A DNA stretch of 64,000 bases from a virus. Location of the stretch: positions 3,413 through 67,412 of the IMG/VR virus record IMGVR_UViG_3300009164_000068. One strand, 5' to 3'. A model generated the notes under the pieces. The model worked only from the letters and a program-made list of their open reading frames with translations. It was not told the origin of the DNA and did no database searches. Position numbers and translations under genes: made by a program. Positions 36,329 to 61,318 of the stretch are shown piece after piece; within the stretch, counting starts at the first letter, position 1, and every line of letters starts with the position of its first letter.

Positions 36329-36348
36329 AAAACTTCAAAAGAGTTGAC

Positions 36349-36397
36349 AACTCCCAGACAAATATAGTAATATATACTATATTCCTGGGAGTTTTTT
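36349..36397 (+). terminator. Long hairpin plus U-tract ending the structural module and overlapping the RBS of the next gene
   Basis: AACTCCCAG-aca-AATATAGTA-atata-TACTATATT-c-CTGGGAGTT followed by TTTT; GGGAG (36387-36391) lies in the 3' arm, GTG at 36398. Confidence 0.7.
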
Positions 36398-36748
36398 GTG
36401 GACGAAAAGATTGAAAAAGCATTTGGCATTGCCAATTACATGGCCACCTTATCAGGCCAAAAGCAAATTCTTAAAGAAGAATATCATCAAAGTTTAATTT
36501 TTTATCATAATGGTGGCATGTTTACAGCTACTCGAGAATTGATAAATTTTGTAAAAACATTGACTGATATTAGTGACGCTAACAACGCAGTTTTAGTTGA
36601 TACTAACGAGTTGCCTATTGATATTGATAATCTTGATAAGTTTCTTGAAACAGCGTTAGCAACTTACCAATATGCAATAAATGCATACTACACTGCCTAT
36701 TCAACTTTGAGAAAGAATAGAACTGTTGAAGGCATTATGAGTCTATGA
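36398..36748 (+). CDS. Hypothetical protein, first gene of the modification operon
   Basis: 116-aa ORF, GTG start with GGGAG, overlaps the next start. Confidence 0.65.
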   Translation: MDEKIEKAFGIANYMATLSGQKQILKEEYHQSLIFYHNGGMFTATRELINFVKTLTDISDANNAVLVDTNELPIDIDNLDKFLETALATYQYAINAYYTAYSTLRKNRTVEGIMSL

Positions 36749-37581
36749 CACAGGGAGTTTTATTATTTGCTCAAAATAATTCAATAGTTGATTACACTAA
36801 GTTGGCAGTCTATGCAGCCACACGAGTAAAAGAGCATCTTAATAAACCTGTATGTGTAGTTACTAACAATAAAGCTCAACTGTTAATTAATGATACTGAG
36901 AAGGTAGTTGATTGTATTGTTGAAATAGATGAGCAATCACCTTACACCAAATACTTTTACGATGGTGCAGAAACAAGTGTTAACTTACAATGGAACAACA
37001 CCAGCAGGTCTAATGCATTTTTACTATCTCCATACGACGAAACATTAGTAATTGATGTTGATTATATTATTAACTCTCCTACGTTACAGTATTGCTGGCT
37101 ACAGCCTCAAGATTTTTTAATTTATAAACATTCATTCGATATTGCACAGTGGCGAGATCAACAAGAGTTTGACCATATTAGTCAGTATTCAATTCCATTC
37201 TACTGGGCAACTGCTTTCTGGTTTAGGAAAAATAAAATAACAGAAAGTTTCTTTGAATTAGTTTCACATATCAAGACTAATTGGCACTATTATAAGTACA
37301 TCTATCAAATACACAGCACTAATTTTAGAAATGATTTTGGATTTAGTATTGCCCTTCATATGATGAATGGGTTTGACGTCAACGGCTTTGCTCAACACTT
37401 GCCCAGTAAGATGTTTTATATAACTGATCGAGATTATTTGACTAAGTCAGTAGGTAATATAATGCATTTCTTAGTTGAAAAAGAAGGCGCCCCCGGTGAT
37501 TACATACATCTTAAGACAAATAATCTTGATATGCATGTTATGAACAAGTTTAGTTTACTAAGGTGTATAGAAAATGTCTAA
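36745..37581 (+). CDS. GT-A fold glycosyltransferase-like protein
   Basis: SPYDETLVIDVDY (DxD) motif; paralog of the next gene. Confidence 0.62.
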   Translation: MTQGVLLFAQNNSIVDYTKLAVYAATRVKEHLNKPVCVVTNNKAQLLINDTEKVVDCIVEIDEQSPYTKYFYDGAETSVNLQWNNTSRSNAFLLSPYDETLVIDVDYIINSPTLQYCWLQPQDFLIYKHSFDIAQWRDQQEFDHISQYSIPFYWATAFWFRKNKITESFFELVSHIKTNWHYYKYIYQIHSTNFRNDFGFSIALHMMNGFDVNGFAQHLPSKMFYITDRDYLTKSVGNIMHFLVEKEGAPGDYIHLKTNNLDMHVMNKFSLLRCIENV

Positions 37582-38404
37582 AGGTCACGTATTCATAGCT
37601 CAGAATAGTGACGTTGACTATGTACGTCAGGCCTGCGCATTGGCTCTATCTATTAAACGGTTTAACAAAATAGAAAATAAAACTTGTTTAATTACCAATG
37701 ATATAGTTCCTGAAGTGTATAAACACGCATTTGATTATATCATTCCTATACCATGGGGTGATCTTGCTGCTGAGACCAGTTGGAAAATTGAAAACCGTTG
37801 GAAAATTATACATGCAAGCCCTTTCAAAGAAAACATTGTATATGATGTAGACATGTTGTTATTAAATTCTAACGATCATTGGTGGCAACATTTTTCTAAT
37901 CATAATTTAATGTTTACATCTACAGTAGTAGATTATAGAAAGAATCCTGTTACCAGTGATTTTTATAGAAAAACATTTACAGCTAACCAACTACCCAACA
38001 TATATGTAGGCGCATTTTATTTTAAAAAGAATGCAACGTCATTTGAATTTTTTAAATGGCTTGACGTTATTACTAAAAATTGGCAAGAGTTTTATAAAGA
38101 ATTTTTACCTAACTCTACACAAAAATTTTGCAGTATAGATGTAAGCGCAGCTCTTGCAATTAAATTTATGGGTTGTGAAGATACAGTTGTTGTTCCTGGA
38201 ACAATAATACCGAGTTTTACTCACATGAAACCAGCTATACAAGGCTGGAATACTATCCCGTTAAAATGGACTCATGTTCTTAGTTCCTATTTAGATGATA
38301 ACTGCAATCTAATAGTGGGCAATGTTAAACAACAGGGAGTGTTTCACTATGTTGAAGATGAGTTCCTAACAGAAGATATGATGCTGAAGTTATCTAAAGT
38401 ATGA
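37574..38404 (+). CDS. GT-A fold glycosyltransferase-like protein
   Basis: DYVRQACALALSI; ENRWK..HASPF.ENIVYDVDML (DxD); FTHMK. Confidence 0.65.
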   Translation: MSKGHVFIAQNSDVDYVRQACALALSIKRFNKIENKTCLITNDIVPEVYKHAFDYIIPIPWGDLAAETSWKIENRWKIIHASPFKENIVYDVDMLLLNSNDHWWQHFSNHNLMFTSTVVDYRKNPVTSDFYRKTFTANQLPNIYVGAFYFKKNATSFEFFKWLDVITKNWQEFYKEFLPNSTQKFCSIDVSAALAIKFMGCEDTVVVPGTIIPSFTHMKPAIQGWNTIPLKWTHVLSSYLDDNCNLIVGNVKQQGVFHYVEDEFLTEDMMLKLSKV

Positions 38405-38952
38405 TTATACGACCACCTACAATAATTTATTGGTATGTACAGTACGATGCAACAGGGAAAGTCCATGCATTAAGCAACGTGCCGTCGACTGTTAATAGAA
38501 ATTTTGAAATTGATAGAGAACTTGTTAAAGAGTTCATGGCTTTCGGTACAAAAAAAGCCGATAATTACACTATCGAATACTTTTTTAATCTCAGTAAAGG
38601 CATAATTGAAAAAGAAGAAGAGCAAGTCATTGTTCAAAATAATATGCCTTACTTAATTCCCCGTACTAAGTCTTATAATAACGAAATAACTATAGAACAT
38701 TATACCAGCGAAGCAAAATGGAGAATATCTGTAAGGGAAGATATTAAGGATAAATTAGAGATAGCATCTTCTTTTTTGTTTTTTGTTTCTAAAAAAGATA
38801 ACCCGCATATATTGTATACTACAATTCATGTAGATACTATTAAAATAAATGAAGATATACCGTTTAAAACCAAAGTTGAACTAAATTTATCTAAGTTTAG
38901 TTTAGTAACAAACAAACGTTTTAACTCTTACGGTATTAAGGAAATAGAATGA
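38401..38952 (+). CDS. Hypothetical protein
   Basis: 183-aa ORF coupled on both sides (ATGA overlaps). Confidence 0.6.
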   Translation: MIIRPPTIIYWYVQYDATGKVHALSNVPSTVNRNFEIDRELVKEFMAFGTKKADNYTIEYFFNLSKGIIEKEEEQVIVQNNMPYLIPRTKSYNNEITIEHYTSEAKWRISVREDIKDKLEIASSFLFFVSKKDNPHILYTTIHVDTIKINEDIPFKTKVELNLSKFSLVTNKRFNSYGIKEIE

Positions 38953-39872
38953 GTCAAAAATTTAAAGTAACAGACTGCGATATTGTATATCTCAGTTATG
39001 ACGAACCAAATGCAGAAGAAAATTATGCCGATTTATTAACAAAAGTGCCATGGGCAAAACGGGTCCACGGAGTTGAAGGCAGTGATGCCGCACACAAGGC
39101 CTGTGCTCGAATTTGCGAAACAGAAAGACTTATAGTTGTTGACGGCGATAATAAAATTCGCCCCGAGTTCCTAAAGCAGGAAATTGAATTCAAAGATGAA
39201 GTAGATCTTAATCAAAGTGTAATTAGTTGGGGAGCCCAAAATGTTATTAACGGATTAATCTACGGCAACGGCGGAATTAAATGCTGGCCGACAAAGTTAG
39301 TTCTTGATATGAAAACTCACGAAGCTGCTGAGAGTGACAATGCTAAAACTCAGGTTGACTTTTGTTGGGATATTAATTATATACAAATGGAACAATGCAT
39401 GAGTGATGTGTATAATAATGCCACTCCGCAACAAGCATGGAGAGCAGGTTTCCGCGAAGGTGTAAAGATGGGATTAAACGAAGGTTCAAAAGTTGATCCT
39501 TTAAATTTTAGCAAAGTAGTACATTGGAAAAATTTTCAAAGATTATTAGTATGGATGCACATAGGCCTTGATGTTAAAAACGGTATATGGGCAATCTATG
39601 GAGCCCGTCAAGGCTGTTATATGACTAACTGCACAGACTGGGACTATGTCAATGTGCGTGATTTCAAATGGTTAAACACTTATTGGCAAACCGACGATAG
39701 TCAAATTACAGACAAAATGTTGCCTTATGAAATTATGGGCATTGGCGAAACGCTTAAACATGAATTAAGTTTATCAATGGCAGATGCATTCACTCCTGAA
39801 CAAAGTAAGTTATTTAAATCTCTGTATACTAATCCTCCTCGTATGCCAAATACATTTATTGTAGGAAAATAA
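38949..39872 (+). CDS. Glycosyltransferase-like protein (GT-A)
   Basis: LSYDEP, KRVHGV.G...AH, VVDGDN (DxD), YGNGGIK, W+AGFRE motifs. Confidence 0.6.
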   Translation: MSQKFKVTDCDIVYLSYDEPNAEENYADLLTKVPWAKRVHGVEGSDAAHKACARICETERLIVVDGDNKIRPEFLKQEIEFKDEVDLNQSVISWGAQNVINGLIYGNGGIKCWPTKLVLDMKTHEAAESDNAKTQVDFCWDINYIQMEQCMSDVYNNATPQQAWRAGFREGVKMGLNEGSKVDPLNFSKVVHWKNFQRLLVWMHIGLDVKNGIWAIYGARQGCYMTNCTDWDYVNVRDFKWLNTYWQTDDSQITDKMLPYEIMGIGETLKHELSLSMADAFTPEQSKLFKSLYTNPPRMPNTFIVGK

Positions 39873-40546
39873 TGTACGATATTGTATTCATTAGCTATCA
39901 AGAACCTGACGCCGACGATCATTGGAATCTTTTAAAAAATAGATTTCCGTTTGCAAAACGAGTTCACGGAGTAAAAGGAATACACCAAGCACATATCACT
40001 GCCGCAGGACGCTGCTTTACTGAGATGATTTGGGTAGTCGATGGCGATGCTATCATATTAGATACTTTTATGTTTAAGTATACTCCTCGAGATACTGAAT
40101 ATGTTCATGTATGGCGTAGTTGTAATCCAGTTAATGATCTTGAATACGGCAACGGCGGAGTTAAACTGTTACCAAGACTTATGACATTAAACATGGATGT
40201 GTCTAAACCTGATATGACTACCAGCATCAGTACAAAGTTTCAAAAGGTAGAAGAAATTTCAAACGTAACTGCATTTAACAGCGATCCGTTTAACACATGG
40301 AAATCAGCATTTAGAGAATGTACTAAGTTAGCCAGTGCAGTAATAGATAGGCAGAAACAAATAGAAACTGATATTAGATTAGATGCATGGTGCTCTATGG
40401 GCATTGATAGATTGCACGGGGAATATTCTATTAAAGGTGCTATCGCAGGTAGAGAATACGGTAGGCAACATGTGGGAAACATAGAAGCATTAAAATTAAT
40501 TAATAATTTTGAATGGCTTAACCAACAATTTAAGGAATCGATATGA
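39872..40546 (+). CDS. Glycosyltransferase-like protein (GT-A), paralog of 38949
   Basis: ISYQEP, KRVHGVKG...AH, WVVDGDA, YGNGGVK, WKSAFRE. Confidence 0.6.
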   Translation: MYDIVFISYQEPDADDHWNLLKNRFPFAKRVHGVKGIHQAHITAAGRCFTEMIWVVDGDAIILDTFMFKYTPRDTEYVHVWRSCNPVNDLEYGNGGVKLLPRLMTLNMDVSKPDMTTSISTKFQKVEEISNVTAFNSDPFNTWKSAFRECTKLASAVIDRQKQIETDIRLDAWCSMGIDRLHGEYSIKGAIAGREYGRQHVGNIEALKLINNFEWLNQQFKESI

Positions 40547-41601
40547 GTGAAAGTACAAGTAGTAGTGAATTTTTGTTAGGTATCGAAGAATATTTAAAAT
40601 TTATTAATGAACTTAATAAGTCTGAAATGATTCATGTGCTATCAAAGGCCTTAGCCAGTTCTGAACCAGAAATTGAATCAATTAAAACTTATTTTCAATT
40701 TCTTACAACTGACATCAAAAATAAAAATAAAAATCTTGCAGACCTGTTGCATGGATTTTATAAAATATCATCAAATATCCAATCGTTACAACTTGTATTA
40801 CAATACCTTAATAAGATATTAAGAGACGAGGGATTTGAAATAGAAGCTGATTTAGCCAAAAGTTTTTTACGAGGATTAGATGAAGGAAACTTTATTGATA
40901 TTGTTTCAACAGCATATATGTCAATGCTTGATACACAATTTCCAAACGATAAAATTTTTCGAGGACTTGCAAGTTATATTAAAAATAACAAAGAAAAAAA
41001 TGCAATTCACGACGCATTGAGCAGAAGTCAAATGAAAAGCAAAATTTGGCTTATAGAAGAACTTGCTAAGATAGATACACACTATAACAATGTAGCAGTA
41101 ATGGCAGGTTGGTTTGGCCAACTCAAAGCTATATATGAAAAGAAATGTACATATGCAAAGATGAGAATTGTTGAAATAGATAGAGCAGCTTGCGAAACCA
41201 GCGATTATATTTTCAATTTGAGTAATTTAGAAAATTACAAAGTAAAAAGTATTTTTGCTAATATTAGTAATTTAATTTTGCACAAGAATGGATATGAGTG
41301 GGATGTTGAAAATTTTAAAGAAGGTACCGCGTACAGTGAAAAATTCTTGCCAGACTTAATTATTAACACCAGCGCAGAACATATGACTGAGGAATGGTAC
41401 AATCAAATTCGATTTAAAGAAATGGAAAGTAATCCAATTGTTGCTATACAAAGTAATAATTTATTTGATATACCAGAACACATTAATTGTGTTCACAGCA
41501 TTGATCATATGAAGAAGAAATTTCCAATGAAAGAAATTCTTTATGAAGGTGAACTACAGTTAAAAGGATATAAGCGAGTTATGCTTATAGGAAGACCATG
41601 A
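40543..41601 (+). CDS. Putative class I SAM-dependent methyltransferase with helical N-terminal extension
   Basis: SQ..SKIWL..L; VAVMAGWFG (motif I-like); IVEID; LIINTSAEH. Confidence 0.55.
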   Translation: MSESTSSSEFLLGIEEYLKFINELNKSEMIHVLSKALASSEPEIESIKTYFQFLTTDIKNKNKNLADLLHGFYKISSNIQSLQLVLQYLNKILRDEGFEIEADLAKSFLRGLDEGNFIDIVSTAYMSMLDTQFPNDKIFRGLASYIKNNKEKNAIHDALSRSQMKSKIWLIEELAKIDTHYNNVAVMAGWFGQLKAIYEKKCTYAKMRIVEIDRAACETSDYIFNLSNLENYKVKSIFANISNLILHKNGYEWDVENFKEGTAYSEKFLPDLIINTSAEHMTEEWYNQIRFKEMESNPIVAIQSNNLFDIPEHINCVHSIDHMKKKFPMKEILYEGELQLKGYKRVMLIGRP

Positions 41602-41822
41602 TTGATTTAGAAACATTTGATTTAAGAACTTTACAAAAAGAAGCAGCCAGAGCCTTATCTGCCATGAGTGCTACAAATAATAATATTCATAAATTTAATC
41701 AACAAGCACACCATGACAGTCAGAAATGGTACAAAGCAGTAATATCTTGGTACATGAATCAATACGGTGATTTGCCAAGTCGTGTTGGACCCGGTACATT
41801 AGTTAAATTGGTAATGGAATAA
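41598..41822 (+). CDS. Small hypothetical protein (74 aa) preceding the radical SAM array
   Basis: Coupled by ATGA/TAATG overlaps; AGGAAG SD. Confidence 0.65.
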   Translation: MIDLETFDLRTLQKEAARALSAMSATNNNIHKFNQQAHHDSQKWYKAVISWYMNQYGDLPSRVGPGTLVKLVME

Positions 41823-42994
41823 TGTTATACAAATATAATGATATAAAAACACTGCATCTTGAAGTTACGGACAAATGCAATGCAGCCTGCCCAATGTGTG
41901 CCAGAAACATCAATGGTGGCGAAGACAATCCGCAACTGCCTGAAGTTGAACTAACACGATCGGACGTTGAAGTTATGTTCCCCGTTGATTTTGTCAAGCA
42001 ACTTGAAAGAATGTATATGTGTGGCAATTATGGAGATCCAATTGCTGCAAAAGACACACTTGAAATATTTCAATATTTTAGATTGCACAATCCTAAGATG
42101 ACACTAAGCCTGCATACAAACGGCAGTGCTAAAAGTACCGAATGGTGGGCACATCTTGCAACAATATTAGGACCAAAAGGCTATGTGGTTTTTAGTGTAG
42201 ACGGCCTTGAAGATACTAATCATCTGTACAGACAAAATACAGTGTTTAGCAAAATCATGACTAATGCTCAGGCGTTCATTAATGCAGGCGGTAGAGCACG
42301 TTGGGATTATATTGTATTTGCACACAACGAACATCAAGTTGAGGAAGCTGAAGCACTTGCAAAAACAATGGGCTTTGAAAAATTTCAATTTAAAAAATCT
42401 GCACGTTTCTTTAGTAATGCCAGTGGTGTAACTAAAGAAATGCATCAAAGTGCAAATAGAAAAGGTATTCAAACTACCTTATTACAACCGCCAACTAATC
42501 CTAAATATCGAAATAGTGCATTACAAGAACTTAGTAAAATTGCCAGCACAACAAACGAAATTAAGTTTCTTCCAAGCAAAGTAGTTGACTTAGATTCTAT
42601 TTTAGGCAAGCAAGTGTTTCACATAGAAGAAAATAAAAAGTCTCCTATGGAAAAATACTGGGATACTGCTCATATCAAATGTAAAGTTGCCGAAGAAAAG
42701 AGCATATACGTCAGCGCCGAGGGAATAGTGCAACCTTGTTGTTGGACTGCCGGACAGATGTATGTGTGGTACTGGCATCCAGAAAGCAGTCAAATTTGGG
42801 ACCTTATTAATGCTGTTGGAAAAGATAATCTCAATGCTAAGAATACTTCGTTACAGGGTATTGTAGACGGCTTGTTTTTTCAAACACTGTTGCCCGACAG
42901 TTGGAAAAAGACAAGCTGTGCAGATGGCAAACTTGCTGTATGCGCCAAGACCTGCGGCGGTAAATATGATGCCTTTACGGAACAATTCAAATGA
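41822..42994 (+). CDS. Radical SAM protein, type A (N-terminal rSAM, C-terminal twitch/SPASM-like Cys domain)
   Basis: CNAACPMC; CGNYGDP; C-terminal C...QPCC...CAKTC. Confidence 0.9.
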   Translation: MLYKYNDIKTLHLEVTDKCNAACPMCARNINGGEDNPQLPEVELTRSDVEVMFPVDFVKQLERMYMCGNYGDPIAAKDTLEIFQYFRLHNPKMTLSLHTNGSAKSTEWWAHLATILGPKGYVVFSVDGLEDTNHLYRQNTVFSKIMTNAQAFINAGGRARWDYIVFAHNEHQVEEAEALAKTMGFEKFQFKKSARFFSNASGVTKEMHQSANRKGIQTTLLQPPTNPKYRNSALQELSKIASTTNEIKFLPSKVVDLDSILGKQVFHIEENKKSPMEKYWDTAHIKCKVAEEKSIYVSAEGIVQPCCWTAGQMYVWYWHPESSQIWDLINAVGKDNLNAKNTSLQGIVDGLFFQTLLPDSWKKTSCADGKLAVCAKTCGGKYDAFTEQFK

Positions 42995-44247
42995 CCACAA
43001 ATAAATTTTCAGAACTTTCTAATACTAACGATCCTACATGCTTATATAAATGGGCATGGAGTACAATTTTTTTACAAACAGGTAGGACATCGAGTTGTCA
43101 CAGAACTTGGAATGATCAAGTAGATCATACTAATTTTGAAACATTCCACAATACTCCTACTAAGTTGGAAACACGACAAGCTATGTTAGATGGCAAGTGG
43201 CCAGGCAAGGGTTGCGAGTATTGTAAAAAAATTGAAGACGCAGGCGGCGTAAGTGACCGAGTAGATTTAAATGGCAATGCACGAATAGAATGGATTCCTA
43301 AAGAATTAATGGAAAATAATCGAGCAATTAATATTACACCTACTATGGTAGAAGTTTATTTTAGTAATCTATGTAATATGGCCTGCGTGTACTGTGATCC
43401 CGGATACAGTTCAACCTGGGAAGTTGAAGCAAGAAAACACAACTTATACTCGAAAGAATATCTTGATAAGTTAATTTTTAACAAAGATAAGTACAGTCTA
43501 ATTTTAGAAAAGTTTTGGCAATGGCTTGATAAAAATGCTGCCAACCTTGAAAGATATAATATTCTTGGCGGTGAACCGTTTTATCAAGACGAGTTAGAAA
43601 CAAATATTGAGTTTTTTGAAACTCATCCTTGTCCTAATTTAAAACTTACTATTTTTTCTAATCTCAAAGTTAATGAGAAAAAGTTTAAAACTATCATGGA
43701 TAAAGTTAATTCTTTATTACAAAGAAAACATCTTAAAGAAGTTAAAATTACTGCCAGTATTGACTGCTGGGGTTCTCAACAAGAATACGTTAGACACAGT
43801 ATAGATTTAACTCAATGGAAGAAAAACTTTTCTATTCTCGTGCATGATTATGTAGATGTTGAATTAGAATTACATGGTACAATGAGTGGCCTAACAATTA
43901 AAACTATTCCAGAGTTAACCGAGCGCATGAATGCATGGAATGTGTTTAGAAGAAGCATAAACAAAAAAACAATCTATCAAACATTCAATCTTGTAGTGCA
44001 TCCTCCTTATATGGCACCAGGCATTTTCCCTACAGGTTTCTTTGATGCAGACTTTGATAGATTAGTAGCAGTTGTAGAACACGAATCAGATAAACGAACT
44101 ATTCGCGGATACCAATCTACTATAAACAATGCATCACACAATCCAGATATGGTAGAAAAATTAAAAACAGAGCTGACTGCAATTGACAAACGACGAAATT
44201 TAAATTGGAGAGATCATTTTGCTTGGTTAGAGGGCAGCAATGTCTGA
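42991..44247 (+). CDS. Radical SAM protein, type B (N-terminal twitch-like Cys domain plus rSAM)
   Basis: TCLYKW...SSCH...CEYC; CNMACVYC; GGEP. Confidence 0.9.
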   Translation: MTTNKFSELSNTNDPTCLYKWAWSTIFLQTGRTSSCHRTWNDQVDHTNFETFHNTPTKLETRQAMLDGKWPGKGCEYCKKIEDAGGVSDRVDLNGNARIEWIPKELMENNRAINITPTMVEVYFSNLCNMACVYCDPGYSSTWEVEARKHNLYSKEYLDKLIFNKDKYSLILEKFWQWLDKNAANLERYNILGGEPFYQDELETNIEFFETHPCPNLKLTIFSNLKVNEKKFKTIMDKVNSLLQRKHLKEVKITASIDCWGSQQEYVRHSIDLTQWKKNFSILVHDYVDVELELHGTMSGLTIKTIPELTERMNAWNVFRRSINKKTIYQTFNLVVHPPYMAPGIFPTGFFDADFDRLVAVVEHESDKRTIRGYQSTINNASHNPDMVEKLKTELTAIDKRRNLNWRDHFAWLEGSNV

Positions 44248-46631: not shown

Positions 46632-46632
46632 A

Positions 46633-52438: not shown

Positions 52439-52980
52439 AAATTTTAATTACAGGTAATCCTACTAAAGGACTTGCCGCCTCATTACATAAAATTTATCCG
52501 GATGCAGAATTCGCATCAAGAGCCAACGGCTACGATTTAACAACCAAAGATGGTTATAATAAATTAGTGGCCAAGTGTACAGAGGTTGATGTGTTTATTA
52601 ATTCAAGTGCGCTATGGAAATTTAATCAAACTTTATTGCTCGATGCAGTTTATAAACGTGCCGCTGAAGCTAAACATAATTTACATATTATTTCAATTGG
52701 CTCAACTACTGATAGAACTAAGAAAGCTACTTCGTGGATGTATAATGCAGAAAAGAAAGCACTTCGCGATTTTTCTAATAGCCTAAGCCTTACAGCAGTG
52801 TGGGAAGGTGGCCCTAAGGTTAACTATATCAGTTTTGGCAGTTTATCTAATGTGCAAGAAAAACATCCTGATCGTATTTGTCTTGACATAGATGTTGCTG
52901 CAAACTATATCAAATGGATTGTTGACCAGCCATCTGGAATTTGTATCAACGAACTAAGTGTAGACCCGTTACAACGATGA
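52435..52980 (+). CDS. Minimal short-chain dehydrogenase/reductase (SDR)
   Basis: ILITGNPTKGL Rossmann start; DVFINS; ISIGS; YNAEK (YxxxK). Confidence 0.75.
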   Translation: MKILITGNPTKGLAASLHKIYPDAEFASRANGYDLTTKDGYNKLVAKCTEVDVFINSSALWKFNQTLLLDAVYKRAAEAKHNLHIISIGSTTDRTKKATSWMYNAEKKALRDFSNSLSLTAVWEGGPKVNYISFGSLSNVQEKHPDRICLDIDVAANYIKWIVDQPSGICINELSVDPLQR

Positions 52981-53696
52981 AAATAGCTATCTTCGGAGAC
53001 AGCTTTGCAGATTGCTTGTGGTTTTCAAAATTAAAAATTCAACCCCAGAACGGCCCGGGCTGGCCTGAATTATTAGCAGAGCAGTATGATGTAATAAATT
53101 TTGCCAAAGGCGGCACAAGTCTATATTATTCGTATGATCTATTTTGCAAACATCATTCTCAATTTGATAGAGTAATATTTGTATCAAGTGCCGCTGAAAG
53201 ATTTGCAGTACATTTGCCAGAATCTAACGATGTGTTTCATATAGTGCCGGGTACTGATCTTAACCAACGAATGTCAGAACTTTATCACTACAAAACGGAC
53301 TTACGTATTATACAAGCAGTCGAAGATTATATATCGTATGTTTTAGATACGGAAAAAGAACGTATCTTTGGTAAATTAATGATTGATGATATATGTCGCA
53401 TACGGAGCGATGTGCTATTATTGCCTGCATTTTGGATAAAAGACAATCACTTAATCCCGTTAGATCATTTTTCCTCTATGGAACAACAGTATTACAAATT
53501 ATCTAAGGACACAATTAATTTAAATAACTTAACTGATTTAAGAAAATGTCATCTGACAGACGAAAACAATCAAATGGTTTATCAAAAAATAGTAGATTCT
53601 ATAAACAAAAAAGTAAGTAGTATAAGTATGAGTATATCAGATTTTAAAACACCAACAAAGGAATGGAACGTGTATTGGAAGGTAATACCCTTATGA
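52977..53696 (+). CDS. SGNH/GDSL hydrolase-like protein
   Basis: IFGDSF block I; NFAKGG block II; C-terminal DLRKCH; start moved to ATG 52977. Confidence 0.55.
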   Translation: MKIAIFGDSFADCLWFSKLKIQPQNGPGWPELLAEQYDVINFAKGGTSLYYSYDLFCKHHSQFDRVIFVSSAAERFAVHLPESNDVFHIVPGTDLNQRMSELYHYKTDLRIIQAVEDYISYVLDTEKERIFGKLMIDDICRIRSDVLLLPAFWIKDNHLIPLDHFSSMEQQYYKLSKDTINLNNLTDLRKCHLTDENNQMVYQKIVDSINKKVSSISMSISDFKTPTKEWNVYWKVIPL

Positions 53697-54448
53697 ACAT
53701 AGGAATTTTTGGCGATAGCCACGCCGACTGTGACTACTTGGCATGGAAAGAATATCACCGTGAAGTTGAGCCAGGATGGCCGGAACTCTTAGCAAGTACT
53801 CGGAGATTTTCTGTGACAAATTTTGCCAAAGGCGGATCCGGCACATATTATTCTTACCAGCTATTTCTAAAGCACCATTCTCAATTTGATAAAGTAATCT
53901 TTATTTCCAGTAGCACAGGCAGGTTTAATATACAATTATCTGATCGAAACCAACAAATAATTCCTGGATTTGTACACGCAGTTGAACCGGAACTAAAAAG
54001 ATATCCTAAAGATTCGTTAGACTATAAAACTTTATCAGCTGCAATAGACTATTGCAAGTATGTAATGGATTTTGATAAAGAATTAATTTTTAATCAGTTA
54101 CTAACATCCAACGTATCAGTAGTGCGTCCCGATGTAATATATATTCCTGCATTCCAACAAAATCAACAGTTACCCAATGATTGTATTGTATTAGCTGATG
54201 TGTCTGCTAAGGAAGAAGAGCTATTAAACACTACCCGAGCAGAATTAAGAAAAGGCGTTCCAAAGTGGGACATTAGAAAATGTCATATCAGTGAAGAACA
54301 CAATAACATATTATACAAAAAAGTTCTACATGCAATTGATAATAATCAGCAATTTGCATATTTAACTGAAGCTGATATTATAAAACCATCAAAACCAATC
54401 TCGTTTTATTTTAAACCAACACCAAATGGAATGCCAGGAAATGTCTGA
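53693..54448 (+). CDS. SGNH/GDSL hydrolase-like protein, tandem paralog
   Basis: IFGDSH; NFAKGG; DIRKCH; start moved to ATG 53693. Confidence 0.55.
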   Translation: MNIGIFGDSHADCDYLAWKEYHREVEPGWPELLASTRRFSVTNFAKGGSGTYYSYQLFLKHHSQFDKVIFISSSTGRFNIQLSDRNQQIIPGFVHAVEPELKRYPKDSLDYKTLSAAIDYCKYVMDFDKELIFNQLLTSNVSVVRPDVIYIPAFQQNQQLPNDCIVLADVSAKEEELLNTTRAELRKGVPKWDIRKCHISEEHNNILYKKVLHAIDNNQQFAYLTEADIIKPSKPISFYFKPTPNGMPGNV

Positions 54449-55631
54449 AGATTTAAGCTGGTCGGCATACGACTTTACAAAAATACCCTACGATGACATT
54501 GTTCGTGTAGGACAACGAACTCTACTGTACAGAGACCTGTTCACCGTAAGCTGGTTACTTGGTAGATTCTGTAACTATCGTTGTAGTTACTGCTGGCCGT
54601 ATGCCCGCAGCGATAAGAAAGATCACAGACCAACAGAATTATGTTTAGCAACTATTGATGAGATTAAACGTCAAGCTCGTGAGCGTAACTTTAACAGTTT
54701 TCACTTTAGTCTCAGCGGAGGTGAGCCTACCTTTCATCCTGGATATATTGACATCCTTAATCATTTAAATGATGATGCAGAGAATACTAATTATACCAGT
54801 GTGCATATGACTACTAATATGAGCCGTAGTGTTAGATGGTTTGAAGAAGAATACTGCCCTGCAGTCAGTAAGTTTCATCGAGCAAGTATCACAGCCAGCT
54901 TACATACCGAACATGTAGACTCTCCTGAAAAAATGCAGGATTTTGCAGACAAGTTAATACTATGTCAAGAACACGATGTACAAGTAACTATTAACATGGT
55001 CATGGTTCCTGAGTGGTTTGAACGTGACTTTAATAACGCATTGTTCTTTCACAATCAAGGCATCAATGTAACGCTAAAACCTCAGAGCGATCCTACAGCC
55101 AGTAGAGTGGTAGATGGCTATACTGACGAAATGTTAAAGCGATTACACAACGGTATGCCGCAACGTGCATTCACTGAAGATAAAGCAACTAAGACCAAGT
55201 TAGTTAGCCGACCAGAACCTAAGTTTTACAAAACGCCTGATCCTATATATAAAGAAGAACATTCGAAAATTCCGCAACATTTTCAAGTTGAGTTTATTGA
55301 TAAGAGTAAGAAAGTTTGGTATATGGACCAAGCAGAACGATTCAATGCATTTAACTTTAATAAGTTTAATGGTTGGGAATGTAGTAGTGGATACAGGGGT
55401 ATCATCATACGTGAACCGGACGGTAGTATTAAACGTAGTTACAGTTGTCATGATGCCCCATTAGGTAACATAGAAACTGGTTTTAAATTATTTGACGGAC
55501 CAATGCCTTGCCAGAGCCCCAGTTGTGTTAGTAGCGCAGATAGTAAGATACCAAAACGTGCGCCCGGCACTAAGTTACCGCTATTTCCTGGTGACGAGAC
55601 ATATTTAAAATCTCAAGATAGTATTTCTTAA
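54441..55631 (+). CDS. Radical SAM protein, type C (distinct C-terminal Cys pattern)
   Basis: CNYRCSYC; SGGEP; C-terminal WEC..G...YSC...PCQSPSC; start moved to ATG 54441. Confidence 0.88.
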   Translation: MSEDLSWSAYDFTKIPYDDIVRVGQRTLLYRDLFTVSWLLGRFCNYRCSYCWPYARSDKKDHRPTELCLATIDEIKRQARERNFNSFHFSLSGGEPTFHPGYIDILNHLNDDAENTNYTSVHMTTNMSRSVRWFEEEYCPAVSKFHRASITASLHTEHVDSPEKMQDFADKLILCQEHDVQVTINMVMVPEWFERDFNNALFFHNQGINVTLKPQSDPTASRVVDGYTDEMLKRLHNGMPQRAFTEDKATKTKLVSRPEPKFYKTPDPIYKEEHSKIPQHFQVEFIDKSKKVWYMDQAERFNAFNFNKFNGWECSSGYRGIIIREPDGSIKRSYSCHDAPLGNIETGFKLFDGPMPCQSPSCVSSADSKIPKRAPGTKLPLFPGDETYLKSQDSIS

Positions 55632-56913
55632 TGTCAATATTTAAATATCGATCATAATTATATACTATATTATCTTTCCAACTATCATAGAGTTTTTGTT
55701 TTTCTATTAACGATAAGCCGGCAATTTCTTGCAATCGATCTATGACATAATCTAACTCGTCTAACAAATGTGGCTGAGTTGGAAATTCTAATTTAGAATA
55801 CTCTCTAAATCCTGCCTGCTTTAACTGATCTCCAATTTTATGACCACCCATAGGGATAAAAGGACATGCAGAGCCTATAGCCATAGCTGTTTTTTCAGTT
55901 AAGAATGAACTACTATGCAAAATATCTCGGTAACAGTTAGCTGCAAATGTTTCGAGTGATACGTGCAATAAACAATCAGAATTATCAAAAGTTGTTGGAC
56001 CTGAAATTGTTCCGTCAATATATCTTAAATTGTTTAAGCTATCCAACGACTCGGGCGTTATGAAATCTAATCGGCTACTTTCGTTATCCATACTACATTC
56101 ATTATATTCTTTGATAAAGTCATTTTTACCTGGAAGCATTCTACTATACTTTCCAACAGACCCTAACCCTTCATGTTCAGCCTTCAATATAAACAAACCT
56201 CGATTCAATCTGGTTTTATTTGAAAATGCTTGCCATACAAGTGTATTGTCTGTTATTTTTCTGGTGTCAACCTTATTAATCCTTGTGTCCCTATTAAGAG
56301 ACACATCCATATTAAAATTTAATCCTCTTCCATTATACTGGAAGAACGGTCCTGGAAAAATTGAATGATATGTTTTAACATTTCGTTTGATATTAATTGA
56401 GTCATTATTTAAATATGAGTACATACTACCTACAATGTAAAACTCAAGGCTACCTAAATTTCTATAATGTCGCGTCGATTGCCTACTGTGGCCGAGATTA
56501 GAAAACATAAAATTTTCTAATAGTCTACGTGACGCATCGTAATGATCAACTATTTCCATAGAGCTGTCAATAATTATTGGTATTTTATGTCTAACTAAGA
56601 AATCGCTAATATTGGGATCTATTAATAAAAAATTAGTAACATGAAAAAAATCAAGTTGATGATAGCAACTGATAAAATAGAATACATCTCGATCTTCAGG
56701 TAACTTATCTTGTTTTATAAAATCACTGGCTTTTTCAAATTTTATAAAATCTGAAGGATGGTTATTTAATAATATTGTTATCTCACTAAGCCAATGAAGA
56801 TATCCGTTGTCTTCTTCTTTTAGTTTTTCGTTTATTTTATTGTATGCTGATTCGAGTAATGTATATATTTTTCCGTCTTTAATATCGTCAACTAAGAATA
56901 TTGCTTTTTTCAT
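55570..56913 (-). CDS. Hypothetical protein with C-terminal glycosyltransferase (GT-B)-like motif
   Basis: VSLET...FLTEKT...PFIPMG...L...GF pattern; probable start ATG 56913 (AAGGA SD); 3' end overlaps the convergent rSAM gene by 62 bp. Confidence 0.45.
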   Translation of the reverse strand: MKKAIFLVDDIKDGKIYTLLESAYNKINEKLKEEDNGYLHWLSEITILLNNHPSDFIKFEKASDFIKQDKLPEDRDVFYFISCYHQLDFFHVTNFLLIDPNISDFLVRHKIPIIIDSSMEIVDHYDASRRLLENFMFSNLGHSRQSTRHYRNLGSLEFYIVGSMYSYLNNDSINIKRNVKTYHSIFPGPFFQYNGRGLNFNMDVSLNRDTRINKVDTRKITDNTLVWQAFSNKTRLNRGLFILKAEHEGLGSVGKYSRMLPGKNDFIKEYNECSMDNESSRLDFITPESLDSLNNLRYIDGTISGPTTFDNSDCLLHVSLETFAANCYRDILHSSSFLTEKTAMAIGSACPFIPMGGHKIGDQLKQAGFREYSKLEFPTQPHLLDELDYVIDRLQEIAGLSLIEKQKLYDSWKDNIVYNYDRYLNIDIKKYYLEILNMSRHQEIAVT

Positions 56914-57686
56914 ATGTTCCTTGCAGTCACTAATAAGTGCCAACCTAAATGTTTTTTAACAGCCTGCTTCATAGCATTGGGCATATGGTCAAACCAGGAT
57001 TCAAGTACAAAGTTTCCTTTTTTATACTCTGGTACATTGAACATAAAACAATGATCTTGTTCTATACTTTCTATATTAAAGTCTGTTAGTAAAGTTTTAA
57101 TATCTTCAACGGTAAAGACATCAGCATATGGACACCCTGACTGCGCTTCAAATTGATCAAGTCCTTCTTGTATCATTGCATATTTCCAGGAGTTTTTTGC
57201 ATATACCATAAATTTAAAAACACCATCTTGATCTAATAATCTATTAATACGATTAATGATATTTTGTATATTAGGGTAATGATGAAGGACACCAAAACTA
57301 TAAACTAAATCAAACTTGCCTAAATCAAACAATGATTCAGTATGTGCATCTAAATTTAGAATAGTACCCGGTAATCCGTATACGTTAAATCGTTGTTCTG
57401 CTATTTCTATACTTGCAGTGCTTATATCTATGCCTACATATTCTGCACCAGCTTTTGCAAATTCAATCCCGTCAGTGGCAATTCCACATCCTATTTCGAG
57501 AACACGTTTATTTTCCCATTTGCTAAAGTCTGCAAATTTTAAAATATGTGGCTCAGCAGTATATCTTTTATCCTTAACTTCTTCAAAGTATTCAATACTG
57601 CCTACGGGTTGATCGCTGTGTTTTATATTACAAGGTTGTGTATTCCAGTAATTAACAATTTCAGTTATTTGGTCTTGTGTTGCCAT
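56910..57686 (-). CDS. Class I SAM-dependent methyltransferase
   Basis: VLEIGCGIATD, GIDIS, FDLVYSFGVLHH. Confidence 0.88.
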   Translation of the reverse strand: MATQDQITEIVNYWNTQPCNIKHSDQPVGSIEYFEEVKDKRYTAEPHILKFADFSKWENKRVLEIGCGIATDGIEFAKAGAEYVGIDISTASIEIAEQRFNVYGLPGTILNLDAHTESLFDLGKFDLVYSFGVLHHYPNIQNIINRINRLLDQDGVFKFMVYAKNSWKYAMIQEGLDQFEAQSGCPYADVFTVEDIKTLLTDFNIESIEQDHCFMFNVPEYKKGNFVLESWFDHMPNAMKQAVKKHLGWHLLVTARNI

Positions 57687-58893
57687 AATGTATTACTGTA
57701 TACCCTTCTATTATATGCATTTTACGCCACGGATCAATAAAGACAGTACCTTTTTCAAACTCACAATATAGTTCGTCTACATTATGCTGGTCTGTATATT
57801 GATAAGTTATTGCCGCACTATGAGCTAATAACACTACGCCTTTAACTTTACCGTTAACAGTGTCTCCAGTTAGTGGATCGATATACACTGGATAATGTCC
57901 CATCTCTTTACAGTAATGCCCTACTAACAAACTGTAACTACCATCACAGTATGCTACTTTTGGTTTATATGCTTTTCCGTGAATATAAATGGACATACCA
58001 GTCTTGTCTGCCCACTTAACTAATTCCTTTGCAAGATTCTCAGCTTGTATTTCTCGAGCATCCATAATAGCTGCAAATAAGTCATAACCTAAGTCAAGCT
58101 GTTCTGCCATGTGGCGTAGTGCAATATTGTCACGAGGGTGACACCCACCGCCATCGCCCATACCTGCTGTCATATATTGCGGACCCATGATACGCATAGT
58201 ACTACGAGCAAGAGCATTAGTCACTACGTCTACATTGATGTTGCCTTGTCGAACAGCAACGTCTTGTATCATATTAACTAACCCAATCTTTGCACTGATG
58301 AATGTGTTGTAAAAAACTTTGATACACTCGCACTCGTCCCATGTACCCACTTCGTATCGCGGATTGTTCTGCATCACAGTTTTGTAAAACTCTACAAGCT
58401 GTTTAGCATCACCAGTGGCAGTTCCATCCTCTGTACCAATCATGACCATCTCAGGATTGACCATGTCCCAGCCCACACTGCCCATGGCAATCAAATAAGG
58501 ATTGTAAACAAATCTTGTATTTGTAATTAATGGAACAAACTCGCGTCTTGTAGTTCCTGGCAATACTGTAGATATCAGCACCAGTAACTGATCCTTAGTC
58601 ATGTGTGCATTTGCTTCTTTGATGCATTCTTTAACAATAGAATAATCAAAGTCTTTAGTTGGTAAATGTGCAGTAGGCGTTCTACCATCATATGCAGGAT
58701 CGTGTGGTGTAGGAACAGCAATAAAAACTATGTCGCACTTTGCAACCATTTTTTTAATGCTGTTAATTTGCTTAACCAGCGTGGCGTCTTTTATTTCAAT
58801 GTCATAACCAAAAACATTATGACCAGCTTGTGCAATTGCTTCTGCACAGGGTAAACCTAATTTACCTATTCCTATAAATCCAATATCTTTCAT
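57661..58893 (-). CDS. UDP-glucose/GDP-mannose dehydrogenase family protein
   Basis: GIGKLG Rossmann; FIAVPTP; ISTVLPGTT; YNP; IKVFYNTFIS.KI; GGGCHPRD catalytic Cys; GKAYKP. Confidence 0.9.
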   Translation of the reverse strand: MKDIGFIGIGKLGLPCAEAIAQAGHNVFGYDIEIKDATLVKQINSIKKMVAKCDIVFIAVPTPHDPAYDGRTPTAHLPTKDFDYSIVKECIKEANAHMTKDQLLVLISTVLPGTTRREFVPLITNTRFVYNPYLIAMGSVGWDMVNPEMVMIGTEDGTATGDAKQLVEFYKTVMQNNPRYEVGTWDECECIKVFYNTFISAKIGLVNMIQDVAVRQGNINVDVVTNALARSTMRIMGPQYMTAGMGDGGGCHPRDNIALRHMAEQLDLGYDLFAAIMDAREIQAENLAKELVKWADKTGMSIYIHGKAYKPKVAYCDGSYSLLVGHYCKEMGHYPVYIDPLTGDTVNGKVKGVVLLAHSAAITYQYTDQHNVDELYCEFEKGTVFIDPWRKMHIIEGYTVIHYGNTRPNN

Positions 58894-59648
58894 GAGCGCC
58901 TTTCTATATCATCTTCGTCACAGTATGCACCATATTGTATTTCTACAAGTCGACAAGGTGTACTATACGGATTATACAATTGATGCCATTCCTGCTCTGC
59001 TATATTCACTGTTTGATGTTTTGTCAACAGCCTTGATGGCAAAGTATAGCCAGAATCCATTTTTCTACCAACTTCACACATACCGTCGACTACGTGCCAG
59101 TGTTCGGCTCTAAATTTATGACGTTGCATGGTTAAACTTTTGCCAGGCATCACAGTTAACTCTTTAACCTTAGTGCCGTTGTGTTGATATATAACACGAT
59201 AGTGTCCCCACTCTCGTTCAGTCTTAGGGGCTTTCCATTCTTCTAAAATCCAGCTACTACTATTCTTTTTATCTTCGCCACCTACACCAAACTTGAAAGT
59301 TACATCCTTCACAGACATTTCAGGTATATTGTTAGCAGTTCGATCACCACCGTTTGCAAAAATTAATTCGCTGCCCGGGTAATGAGCTCGAACCTGTTGT
59401 ATAAAATGTGTTGCTGAATTATCTTCGTCGTCAAATGTATAGACCTCATGCACCATGGACAGATTATTGATAATACATAATCTTTCATTCCAGGGCATAA
59501 ATGCTCTGCCCTTTTTACGCTCTAACCATTCATCACTATTAAGCCCAACAATTAAAATATCGCCGAGTTCTTTAGCCGCTTTAAAATAGGCTATGTGGCC
59601 AGAATGAAGGGGGTCGAAACCCCCTGTGACTAATACAATACGTTTCAT
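58890..59648 (-). CDS. Cytidylyl/adenylyltransferase (TagD/RfaE-like) fused to a type II PMI-like cupin
   Basis: TGGFDPLHSGH (HxGH), GLNSD..L.RKKG, FANGGDR, SSS; C-terminal REWG.Y...KVKEL.V.PG.SL.MQRH..RAEHW. Confidence 0.88.
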   Translation of the reverse strand: MKRIVLVTGGFDPLHSGHIAYFKAAKELGDILIVGLNSDEWLERKKGRAFMPWNERLCIINNLSMVHEVYTFDDEDNSATHFIQQVRAHYPGSELIFANGGDRTANNIPEMSVKDVTFKFGVGGEDKKNSSSWILEEWKAPKTEREWGHYRVIYQHNGTKVKELTVMPGKSLTMQRHKFRAEHWHVVDGMCEVGRKMDSGYTLPSRLLTKHQTVNIAEQEWHQLYNPYSTPCRLVEIQYGAYCDEDDIERRS

Positions 59649-61317: not shown

Positions 61318-61318
61318 A

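Follow-up and report, generated by a model that had tools for sequence, protein, structure and literature searches.

What does a phage make with eight radical S-adenosylmethionine (SAM) genes that lie directly behind its tail genes? The question is raised by a stretch of 64,000 nucleotides of viral DNA (hereafter the window; positions 3,413 to 67,412 of IMG/VR record IMGVR_UViG_3300009164_000068), in which positions 36398 to 59648 hold an island of genes for radical SAM enzymes, transferase-like proteins and nucleotide-sugar enzymes. We found that this island is real, widespread and uncharacterised. Its gene content and its relatives suggest that it most likely tailors and transfers a sugar, a reading in which we place about half of our confidence. 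A preliminary description of the same DNA had proposed that the cluster makes a tailored glycan or small molecule and attaches it, most plausibly to virion proteins. The tailoring cluster proved real, with sugar chemistry its likeliest business given the co-occurrence of its genes and a sugar locus in a Bdellovibrio genome (see below); attachment to virion proteins would be a further, putative step.

The island opens with a plus-strand operon at 36398-55631 (19,234 bp) of 20 genes, one of them a small open reading frame (ORF) of 74 amino acids (aa). All junctions fall between -56 and +1 bases, each gene overlapping or abutting its neighbour, which bears out the roughly 19-kb operon of such genes described earlier directly behind the last tail gene. 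Most of the gene inventory given at that time also stood, with some assignments weaker than others; the 74-aa gene at 41598-41822, which fills the sole apparent gap, and a promoter at 36344-36373 had been overlooked. Behind the operon lies a convergent nucleotide-sugar operon on the minus strand (55570-59648). Genes are named here by their first coordinate. The radical SAM genes are:

41822..42994, plus strand: core radical SAM, class A (PF04055 26.9 bits; phrog_21308 E 1.7e-21)
42991..44247, plus strand: N-terminal-twitch radical SAM (NF033640 231.9 bits)
44240..45322, plus strand: radical SAM, class A paralogue (PF04055 35.1 bits; phrog_21308 E 6e-22)
45315..46631, plus strand: N-terminal-twitch radical SAM (NF033640 379.4 bits)
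47294..48751, plus strand: core N-terminal-twitch radical SAM (NF033640 429.5 bits)
48744..51179, plus strand: fusion of a class A radical SAM (residues 1-340) and an N-terminal-twitch radical SAM (353-797) (Pfam, NCBIfam)
51179..52438, plus strand: N-terminal-twitch radical SAM (NF033640 325.9 bits)
54426..55631, plus strand: core radical SAM of a third class, last gene of the plus-strand operon (PF04055 55 bits)

The earlier count of eight radical SAM genes with nine CxxxCxxC domains was confirmed by PF04055, which matched eight proteins and 48744 twice. A six-frame search of the whole record gave nine matches, seven of them above the curated cut-off; all nine domains contain CxxxCxxC, and the per-protein scores ranged from 26.9 to 86.6 bits. 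By NCBIfam the domains fall into three classes: five in NF033640 (N_Twi_rSAM, the N-terminal twitch family; curated cut-off 170 bits), three in a second class (class A) and one in a third. The NF033640 members 42991, 45315, 47294, 48744 (353-797) and 51179 scored 232-430 bits, and 41822, 44240 and 54426, at 40-60 bits, are not members. The five N-twitch paralogues share only 25-27% identity with 51179, the first row of their alignment, together with four invariant Cys ahead of CxxxCxxC, and are therefore old paralogues rather than recent duplicates. Pfam SPASM matches (28-113, 356-433 and 7-69) precede the PF04055 stretches and place the auxiliary Cys domain at the N-terminus; in 51179, for example, SPASM at 7-69 lies N-terminal to PF04055 at 120-274. 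The fused protein 48744 carries two PF04055 stretches, SPASM at 356-433, an NF033640 match of 307.3 bits at 353-797, and CxxxCxxC at 18 and 492. The second-class domains (41822, 44240 and 48744 1-340) show a C-terminal Cys-rich region and phrog_21308 matches; in 41822 the CxxxCxxC is N-terminal, the Cys-rich region is SPASM/twitch-like, and the Cys are invariant in the family alignment.

What these enzymes act on is not given by their families. Literature searches turned up no publication about NF033640, this island or radical SAM clusters in Bdellovibrio, nor did we find a characterised member of NF033640, so membership is uninformative on substrate. PDB sequence searches gave SkfB as the nearest solved structure for the N-twitch profile of 47294 (E 4e-5), NifB for 41822 (E 1.4e-5), and no relative at E ≤ 0.01 for 54426. 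A viperin-type (pVip) identity was rejected: the best score was 45.3 bits (48744), with 42.1 for 54426, under an NCBIfam cut-off of 180. PADLOC returned only partial similarities to pVip and QueC, and the pVip matches are confined to the cluster-binding N-terminal part.

The first seven genes of the operon, 36398-41601, had no Pfam or NCBIfam match, and PHROGs gave nothing for them save one weak match:

36398..36748, plus strand: first island gene, 116 aa, conserved in related phages and in Ralstonia phage RsoM2USA (no Pfam, PHROG or NCBIfam match)
36745..37581, plus strand: GT8 (glycogenin)-like protein with invariant DxD (D104, D106) (profile)
37574..38404, plus strand: GT8-like paralogue of 36745 (profile; phrog_1903 E 4.6e-4)
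38401..38952, plus strand: poorly conserved 183-aa protein (five orthologues at 27-30%; no family match)
38949..39872, plus strand: GT-A-fold protein, paralogue of 39872, DGD at 65-67 (family alignment)
39872..40546, plus strand: core gene, GT-A fold in residues 1-135 followed by a helical C-terminal domain (AlphaFold model)
40543..41601, plus strand: core gene, N-terminal helical domain and C-terminal class I SAM methyltransferase fold (AlphaFold model)

Four of these genes had been called DxD glycosyltransferase (GT)-like, a description that is supported by fold for the 39872 family and by profile for 36745/37574, and not at the level of Pfam family. Neither 36745 nor 37574 matched a Pfam family at E ≤ 0.01; a profile built from 28 of their sequences matched 90 positions of glycogenin-1 (E 9e-4), and in that match the invariant DxD falls on the DAD of glycogenin. 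In the 39872 family D59 is invariant and D57 nearly so. An alignment of 38949/39872 gave no match among PDB sequences; an AlphaFold model of 39872 (pLDDT 93.3), built from 34 homologues including 38949 paralogues, matched by Foldseek ppGalNAc-T, WrtF and PBCV-1 A64R at E 1.5e-4 to 6e-4, and by structure alignment (VIA) B4GALNT1, WrtF, ThuS/SunS and SpsA at Z 10-11.6 (root-mean-square deviation 2.6-3.7 over 131-136 residues). By this model 39872 has a GT-A-type nucleotide-diphospho-sugar transferase fold and is a predicted transferase.

The methyltransferase noted earlier in the plus-strand operon likewise stands, at fold level and not at family level. The protein, 40543, had no Pfam match and only chance-level matches in the PDB sequence search, and its AlphaFold model (pLDDT 82.9) drew at least 500 Foldseek matches at E ≤ 0.001, the top ones all methyltransferases (PsoF, Rv2258c, CalH, BchU, PhzM, DnrK and TehB; E 6e-7 to 1e-5, probability 1.0). 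The modelled structure is that of a class I SAM methyltransferase, with predicted SAM binding. Furthermore, a single ORF of 798-1127 aa unites homologues of 38949, 39872 and 40543 in 10 of 46 distinct 40543-homologue ORFs (four were checked), and the three proteins are therefore functionally tied.

The accessory enzymes of the plus-strand operon and the genes of the convergent operon are:

46633..47349, plus strand: PP-loop ATP pyrophosphatase, SGGADS (Pfam QueC 24.4 bits, residues 175-236 only)
52435..52980, plus strand: short protein of 181 aa resembling short-chain dehydrogenases/reductases (SDR) (adh_short E 0.0049)
52941..53696, plus strand: FGDS-motif protein, weakly SGNH/GDSL-like (Lipase_GDSL E 0.19)
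53663..54448, plus strand: FGDS-motif paralogue of 52941 (no family match)
55570..56943, minus strand: 457-aa protein of a virus-only family (no Pfam, PHROG or NCBIfam match)
56910..57686, minus strand: class I SAM methyltransferase (Methyltransf_12 E 5e-19; phrog_22502 E 3.5e-67)
57661..58893, minus strand: nucleotide-sugar dehydrogenase family (UDPG_MGDP_dh_N and central domains; phrog_9148 E 1.3e-96)
58890..59648, minus strand: nucleotidyltransferase (RfaE domain II/cytidylyltransferase-like) with a mannose-6-phosphate-isomerase-type cupin (Pfam)

Pfam and NCBIfam confirmed the cytidylyltransferase-cupin, UDP-sugar dehydrogenase and methyltransferase that had been read in the convergent operon (58890, 57661 and 56910). 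The first of these matches CTP_transf_like at E 2.4e-12 and MannoseP_isomer at E 1.3e-24, with TIGR02199 and TIGR01479 both partial, and 57661 scores 149.8 bits against TIGR03026, under the cut-off of 189.8. Homologues of 57661 lie inside the island in five phage loci (L043, L053, L055, L056 and L064) and beside N_Twi genes in three loci of Bdellovibrionota (L125, L135 and L158). The GT-like call for 55570 is weak: its nearest ESM Atlas clusters are viral hypotheticals (0.97), a lone lead at 0.81 points to GT10, and its structural neighbours include forms from clusters with epimerase or methyltransferase families.

Among the accessory enzymes, 46633 keeps its PP-loop (SGGADS) and a C-terminal stretch of 60 residues that resembles QueC, and loses the QueC identity itself: it scored 19.4 bits against the equivalog TIGR00364 (cut-off 150.3) and is therefore a PP-loop ATPase, not QueC. 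PDB sequences gave it chance-level matches only. One to three PP-loop paralogues occur per locus in phages and Bdellovibrionota. The SDR assignment of 52435 is weak; in addition to the adh_short match, TG..G and YxxxK motifs were seen by eye, orthologues at 55-73% occur in 14 phage sequences, and the Bdellovibrionota homologues match adh_short. The two proteins described as SGNH-like both carry an FGDS motif near the N-terminus, and the family resemblance is weak in 52941, while 53663 gave no family match.

A scan of IMG/VR with 47294 matched 387 stretches, so the island is not rare; our phage locus counts rest on the 80 loci kept from these. In the 80 loci the order 39872-40543-41822...47294...54426 is kept, and the genes in between vary in number and kind. 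The most conserved gene of the island is 47294 (75-91% identity in the 80 loci); orthologues of 54426 share 69-89% in phage loci. Forty loci with both anchors held 6-13 radical SAM hits (median 9) over 8.5-19.5 kb, and three related near-complete genomes gave 14-20 PF04055 matches each. With nine domains over 13.8 kb the window is a typical member, and the number of radical SAM enzymes, remarked on earlier as unmatched in characterised phage pathways, is ordinary for this phage clade. Of the 29 loci with sufficient upstream DNA, 16 carry the GT8-like pair, and in 17 a fibre-like gene was detected at a distance of no more than 7 kb upstream. The co-occurrence of radical SAM and GT-like genes, proposed earlier as a check on the cluster, was seen in the 80 phage loci, in RsoM2USA and in Bdellovibrionota.

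Among cultured phages, the GT-A-like gene was found only in Ralstonia phage RsoM2USA (43% identity), where ORFs 347-354 (MG752970, ~216-222 kb) form a minimal island in a cultured jumbo phage. This phage shares, in the same order, 36398, 36745, 37574, 38949, an N_Twi radical SAM, 39872 and the C-terminal domain of 40543, all annotated as hypothetical and 27-43% identical to the window proteins (34% for 36398, whose other orthologues lie at 32-56%; 39% for 37574; 32% between 42991 and the sole radical SAM of RsoM2USA). It differs in having one radical SAM gene and in lacking the class A and 54426-type radical SAMs, the 74-aa gene and the PP-loop enzyme. The placement of an N_Twi radical SAM between two GT-A genes recurs in five phage loci (L036, L057, L077, L087 and L088). 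In the RsoM2USA paper (PMC8504454), the passages matching the terms searched make no mention of these genes, and cultured-phage records gave no nucleotide match to the radical SAM block by megablast.

The island has relatives outside phages. In a scan with the N-twitch alignment, one genome per species, we found 72 loci, of which 56 came from Bdellovibrio-type lineages as counted by record titles (Bdellovibrionales, Bacteriovoracaceae, Pseudobdellovibrionaceae, Bdellovibrionia and Oligoflexia). Many Bdellovibrionota loci hold the whole core of 39872, 40543, 41822, 47294 and 54426, at identities of 54-62% for 47294 (58-63% for its orthologues in Bdellovibrionota genomes), 53-66% for 54426, 34-49% for 41822, about 36-45% for 39872/38949 and 22-31% for 40543, together with extra radical SAM paralogues, PP-loop triplets and a short SDR. 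On either side they border on common chromosomal genes, for instance those for a tRNA synthetase and a flotillin. Each of four genomes examined has a 47294 orthologue at 60-62% and 8-21 N-twitch matches; in a sample of 201 genomes of the phylum, 22 had a match at E ≤ 1e-20 and 7 an orthologue at 58% or more. A quick tree of 47294, with SH-aLRT as its sole support measure and the long-branched 45315 paralogue group as its root, placed the phage sequences as one clade nested within a Bdellovibrionota grade, which is at most suggestive of transfer from bacteria to phage.

The strongest evidence for a sugar role of the radical SAM family came from Bdellovibrio sp. HCB2-146 (G004, L158), in which a region of about 45 kb interleaves radical SAM and sugar genes. 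This genome holds orthologues of 47294 (61%), 54426 (55%) and 41822 (48%) and a homologue of 40543 (27%), and among its sugar genes are two for UDPG_MGDP_dh proteins, two for epimerase/dehydratases and one for a DegT/DnrJ/EryC1 aminotransferase, along with five GT2 matches, a polysaccharide lyase, a GNAT and a short SDR. In the same genome the cluster is adjoined by a protein of 1965 aa (L164:12084-17978, minus strand) whose C-terminus is a Peptidase_S74 (endosialidase chaperone) domain, a kind found in phage tail spikes. Such a fibre lies beside the cluster in one of the four Bdellovibrionota genomes and is elsewhere or absent in the other three, and we treat fibre adjacency in Bdellovibrio as one lead, with no pattern.

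We propose that a self-promoted operon of soluble cytoplasmic enzymes would build an unusual sugar by oxygen-independent radical chemistry and pass it to an acceptor. An activated sugar would come from the convergent operon, through the nucleotidyltransferase-cupin 58890, the nucleotide-diphosphate (NDP)-sugar dehydrogenase 57661 and the methyltransferase 56910, and would be edited by the core, namely the GT-A-fold proteins 38949/39872, the methyltransferase-fold protein 40543 and the radical SAMs 41822, 47294 and 54426. Lineage-specific changes may then be made by the variable extras: class A/N-twitch radical SAM pairs (one fused, 48744), the PP-loop enzyme as a carboxylate-activating enzyme, the short SDR and the two FGDS-motif proteins. 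Finally, the product would be transferred by the GT8-like and GT-A-like proteins. We infer every one of these chemical steps, and likewise the acceptor, from family, fold and context. The hypervariable content of the island (6-13 radical SAM hits in 40 loci) fits a diversifying tailoring.

Where might such a pathway end? Over windows of 19 residues, hydrophobicity stays under 1.6 throughout every island protein, so that none shows a membrane segment, and the island genes include no flippase, polymerase or lipid-carrier transferase. The phage pathway would therefore end in the cytoplasm, so that the candidate end-points are a protein, a nucleotide-linked sugar handed to host enzymes, a small molecule or DNA. 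As acceptor, the foremost candidate is a fibre protein of the virion, which is assembled in the cytoplasm, and the position of the island beside the fibre genes favours virion proteins as the target. The promoter that precedes the island bears on the same question:

28289-36328: fibre-type genes, the last tail genes ahead of the island (PHROG matches)
36344..36373, plus strand: sigma70-type promoter-like site TTGACA-18-TAATAT, in the 69-nt gap behind the last tail gene
1400-1428, 2267-2295 and 63313-63341, all minus strand: sigma70-type sites before sbcD, a gp55-like late sigma factor gene and a DUF2201/VWA gene (TTGAC-N17-19-TANAAT)

A TTGAC-N17/18-TAxAxT element, read by eye, stands at the equivalent place upstream of the 36398 orthologues in 10 of 11 sequences, the window included, and a CTCCCAG/CTGGGAG inverted repeat followed by a T-run overlaps the site in the window. 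The strict pattern TTGAC-N17-19-TANAAT occurs five times in the window against 1.03 expected, and three of these sites precede sbcD, the gp55-like sigma factor gene and the DUF2201/VWA gene; a general scan for promoters and terminators, with 81 sites for an expected 78.5, was uninformative. Since the island promoter is conserved and of the type seen before these three genes, the island is not simply a continued tail operon, and from these sites it looks like a transcription unit of its own with an early-type promoter rather than read-through from the fibre operon. The T4 late motif TATAAATA occurred once in the window against 10.2 expected and was rejected as the late promoter of this phage; the late promoters of the phage clade must therefore differ in form.

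Several observations weigh against the sugar-tailoring reading or against the virion as its target. Judging by its sigma70-type promoter, the island may be expressed separately from the fibre genes, and the positional argument for a virion target is therefore weakened. The GT8-like pair is missing in 13 of the 29 loci with enough upstream DNA, none of the four GT-like proteins matches any Pfam GT model, and the nucleotidyltransferases IspD and MobA match the GT-A fold of 39872 at equal Z. The nearest solved relatives of the radical SAM enzymes (SkfB, NifB, or none) are distant; with no island enzyme close to a characterised one, sugar substrates are not established. SPASM/twitch radical SAM enzymes more often modify peptides. 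The conserved 74-aa ORF, translationally coupled between 40543 and 41822, would suit a peptide pathway, as discussed below. Finally, the bacterial versions come with membrane partners, namely a PMT_2 protein and a long GT2 in the flanks of one locus (L101) and an ORF with 8 hydrophobic segments that adjoins the G004 region, and the phage has none; the end-point may therefore differ between phage and bacterium.

The alternative that stands best is remodelling of the host envelope, which we consider unlikely. The island would be expressed early, divert host nucleotide sugars and, working at the cytoplasmic face, place an edited sugar on the lipopolysaccharide (LPS) core or another envelope glycan, masking receptors against superinfection, as has been proposed for glycosyltransferases in passages of the pelagimyophage study of Zaragoza-Solas et al. 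(PMC7029224). The early-type promoter, of a kind common to sbcD, the sigma factor gene and DUF2201, favours the envelope as a target, as does the reading in those passages of GT8, mainly an LPS family, as a modifier of O-chains; in addition, the bacterial homologues sit in surface-glycan-type loci with GT-C-like PMT_2 and GT2 proteins. However, the island itself has no membrane protein, flippase, polymerase or lipid-carrier transferase, and its constant neighbour is the fibre module, not early genes. For the virion reading, a wider version would hold that phages and predatory Bdellovibrionota share a toolkit, a three-class radical SAM core and a GT-A/methyltransferase protein, that makes combinatorially edited sugars without oxygen and places them on prey-contacting fibres, the phages having acquired the core from Bdellovibrionota, expanded it into a hypervariable array and added a phage-only 74-aa adaptor. 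Hints of this are the nested position of the phage clade in the 47294 tree and the 1965-aa fibre beside the Bdellovibrio cluster; we regard it as doubtful.

The 74-aa gene is central to a further alternative:

41598..41822, plus strand: conserved 74-aa gene, overlapping the 40543 stop and the 41822 start

We found this gene in 63 of the 80 phage loci. In 42 of 72 loci its end lies no more than 40 nt from the 41822 orthologue, and in the loci inspected it follows the 40543 homologue. An alignment of 24 sequences has 21 invariant columns; conservation spans about 50 residues, and there is no Cys. A profile search returned 3316 protein clusters at E ≤ 0.001, and among the 120 listed nearly all are 74 aa and all are unnamed; the ESM Atlas gave no usable match. 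In four loci (L022, L035, L050 and L087) an extra ORF of about 160-220 aa, not present in the window, stands between the 74-aa gene and the 41822 orthologue and shows a kinase-like HxDLxxxN motif when read by eye.

If the radical SAM enzymes cross-linked or modified the 74-aa protein or the fibre proteins, with the PP-loop enzyme and the methyltransferase performing further peptide tailoring, the island would resemble a pathway for ribosomally synthesised and post-translationally modified peptides (RiPPs) and no sugar would be involved. Such a pathway would suit the translational coupling of the 74-aa ORF and its spread over 3316 clusters, as well as the fact that SkfB, the nearest solved relative of the N_Twi profile, is a peptide thioether synthase; weak NCBIfam matches to the peptide maturases PapB, HxsB/HxsC and ScmE/F point the same way. 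A RiPP precursor should accompany its maturase everywhere, and as such a precursor the 74-aa gene was rejected: the core occurs without it in Bdellovibrionota, in RsoM2USA and in 17 of the 80 phage loci. The protein, with its 50 or so conserved residues and its lack of Cys, also resembles a folded subunit more than a leader-plus-core precursor, and the sugar-enzyme context points in the other direction. We rate the peptide pathway as improbable.

A diffusible nucleoside- or aminoglycoside-like compound, made from an NDP-sugar and used by phages and predatory bacteria against prey or competitors, has a similarly slim prospect. All enzymes are soluble, the fold of 40543 is of the small-molecule methyltransferase type (DnrK, PhzM and PsoF), there is a weak NCBIfam match to BlsE (cytosylglucuronate decarboxylase; E 1.8e-12), and the module is common to two kinds of bacterial predator; moreover, passages of PMC12801897 label a cyanophage trio of radical SAM, aminotransferase and amidinotransferase as 'antibiotic synthesis genes', without tests. 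The four transferase-like proteins, however, favour a product that is attached to a macromolecule, the cluster has neither an exporter nor a resistance gene, and the family matches all fall far under the curated cut-offs.

DNA as a target had been kept as an alternative in the preliminary description. Modification of DNA or nucleotides, with glycosylated or 7-deazaguanine-type bases, is weakened to the point that DNA appears an unlikely target and the proposal as a whole very improbable. In its favour are the QueC-like PP-loop enzyme, the QueE-like PHROG matches, the presence of thyX upstream within the convergent operon, a promoter of early type and the known part of radical SAM enzymes in thymidine hypermodification. 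Against it, TGT/DpdA (PF01702) was matched in none of three related phage genomes with a completeness of 92-100%, the closest of these (G205) gave no ThyA-type (PF00303) match, the QueC equivalog scored 19.4 against 150.3 and the QueE-type matches are weak, and the core lies inside sugar loci in Bdellovibrionota. The other two related near-complete genomes do have full-score ThyA-type matches.

How does the preferred sugar-tailoring pathway compare with known systems? Some twitch-domain radical SAM enzymes (BtrN, NeoN and HygY) oxidise or epimerise sugars and aminocyclitols. The island proteins resemble them in combining a radical SAM core with one auxiliary-cluster (twitch) domain in a carbohydrate gene context, and differ in that their twitch domain is N-terminal; PDB sequence searches gave no match to BtrN or to any sugar-acting radical SAM enzyme. 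Virus-encoded GT-A-type transferases also form the mycobacteriophage system of virion glycosylation (Freeman et al. 2023, as cited in PMC12619734) and that of PBCV-1, whose capsid glycosyltransferase A64R (PDB 2p6w) is among the Foldseek matches of 39872 (E 4.8e-4). Those systems decorate virion proteins in the cytoplasm and are not known to contain radical SAM enzymes; a virion glycan in the phage clade of the island is putative. Passages of the 'moraphage' paper PMC12619734 mention neither radical SAM nor Atu_ph07 and provide no link to the phage clade.

The closest described system is the host recognition cluster (HRC) of the T4-like marine pelagimyophages and cyanomyophages, which according to passages of Zaragoza-Solas et al. 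2020 (PMC7029224) is hypervariable, lies beside fibres and holds GT8s, rfaE, UDP-glucose dehydrogenase and radical SAM cassettes. Both are variable islands in the structural region beside tail-fibre genes: the window has fibre-type genes at 28289-36328 and variable content between anchors, and its relatives have the nearby fibre-like gene counted above (17 of 29 loci). Unlike the phages with an HRC, the window phage is of another lineage, its baseplate wedge protein lying nearest those of Atu_ph07, SCTP-2 and Rak2-like phages at 34-36%, and among cultured phage records no pelagiphage or cyanophage was matched by the N_Twi query 47294 or the fused 48744. The radical SAM enzymes of the HRC are left unanalysed in the passages of PMC7029224 concerned.

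Radical SAM enzymes are oxygen-sensitive and costly. An abundant aquatic clade of jumbo phages nevertheless devotes 8-20 kb to arrays of them, drawn from families that are all without a characterised member. The identity of the product would define the chemistry of NF033640 and of the other two radical SAM classes. It would also reveal if radical chemistry serves phages in diversifying a glycan of a surface or of the host, and explain why predatory bacteria keep the same core; because cultured carriers exist (the Ralstonia jumbo phage and a Bdellovibrio isolate), the question is testable. New in the present analysis are the 74-aa gene with the loci in which it occurs, the fusion of three proteins, the minimal form in RsoM2USA, the Bdellovibrio sugar locus, the promoter comparison and the DNA-modification negatives.

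The parent record is 67,412 bases long, with a CheckV completeness of 14%; related IMG/VR records are 342-383 kb long and rated 92-100% complete. Among cultured phages, Agrobacterium phage Atu_ph07 has the closest relative of the wedge protein (8193-11678; 36.3% identity), followed by Salicola phage SCTP-2 and Rak2-like jumbo phages in a 34-36% group. From these wedge relatives and the length of the near-complete records we take the window phage to be an uncultured jumbo myophage. Upstream of the island, PHROG matches identify the baseplate wedge, a hub, a 4734-aa ORF and fibre-type proteins ending at 36328. The 4734-aa ORF occupies 11678-25882 on its own, between the wedge gene and the fibre-type genes, and is presumably a giant structural or fibre protein. 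thyX is located by Pfam upstream within the convergent operon, and beside it stands a conserved pair in which a DUF2201 metallopeptidase/VWA-like protein (62075-63994, minus strand) adjoins a phrog_1297 ATPase.

The island also occurs on contigs in metagenome-assembled genomes of Bacteroidota, Neisseriaceae, Gammaproteobacteria, Rickettsiales, Planctomycetota and others (L090-L092, L095, L096, L112 and L114-L116). Five of these (L090-L092, L095 and L112) show 71-80% identity, or the phage gene order and the 74-aa gene, and L091, L092, L095 and L112 hold the phage-only 74-aa gene; from such features the contigs are probably of phage origin and were binned with bacterial genomes.

Freshwater and lake metagenome runs from several studies hold DNA near-identical to the window. 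In one lake-metagenome run (X4) a contig that otherwise tracks the window has 688 other letters in place of the 778 bases at 40552-41331, a stretch that corresponds to the N-terminal helical domain of 40543; contigs of this run leave most of 48.4-55 kb uncovered at 90% likeness. In another locus (L015) the same domain is expanded into repeats of an ...NL.S[IV]F[RK].L... motif. The N-terminal domain of 40543 can be regarded, on the sequences compared, as a hot spot of variation. Lastly, the interval 61318-61796 has no entry in the list of ORFs of 80 aa, and two similar short minus-strand ORFs are apparent there, each with a ...TTCAGTCAT start region and a GGAG-like site at its upstream end; the pair resembles small paralogues in tandem.

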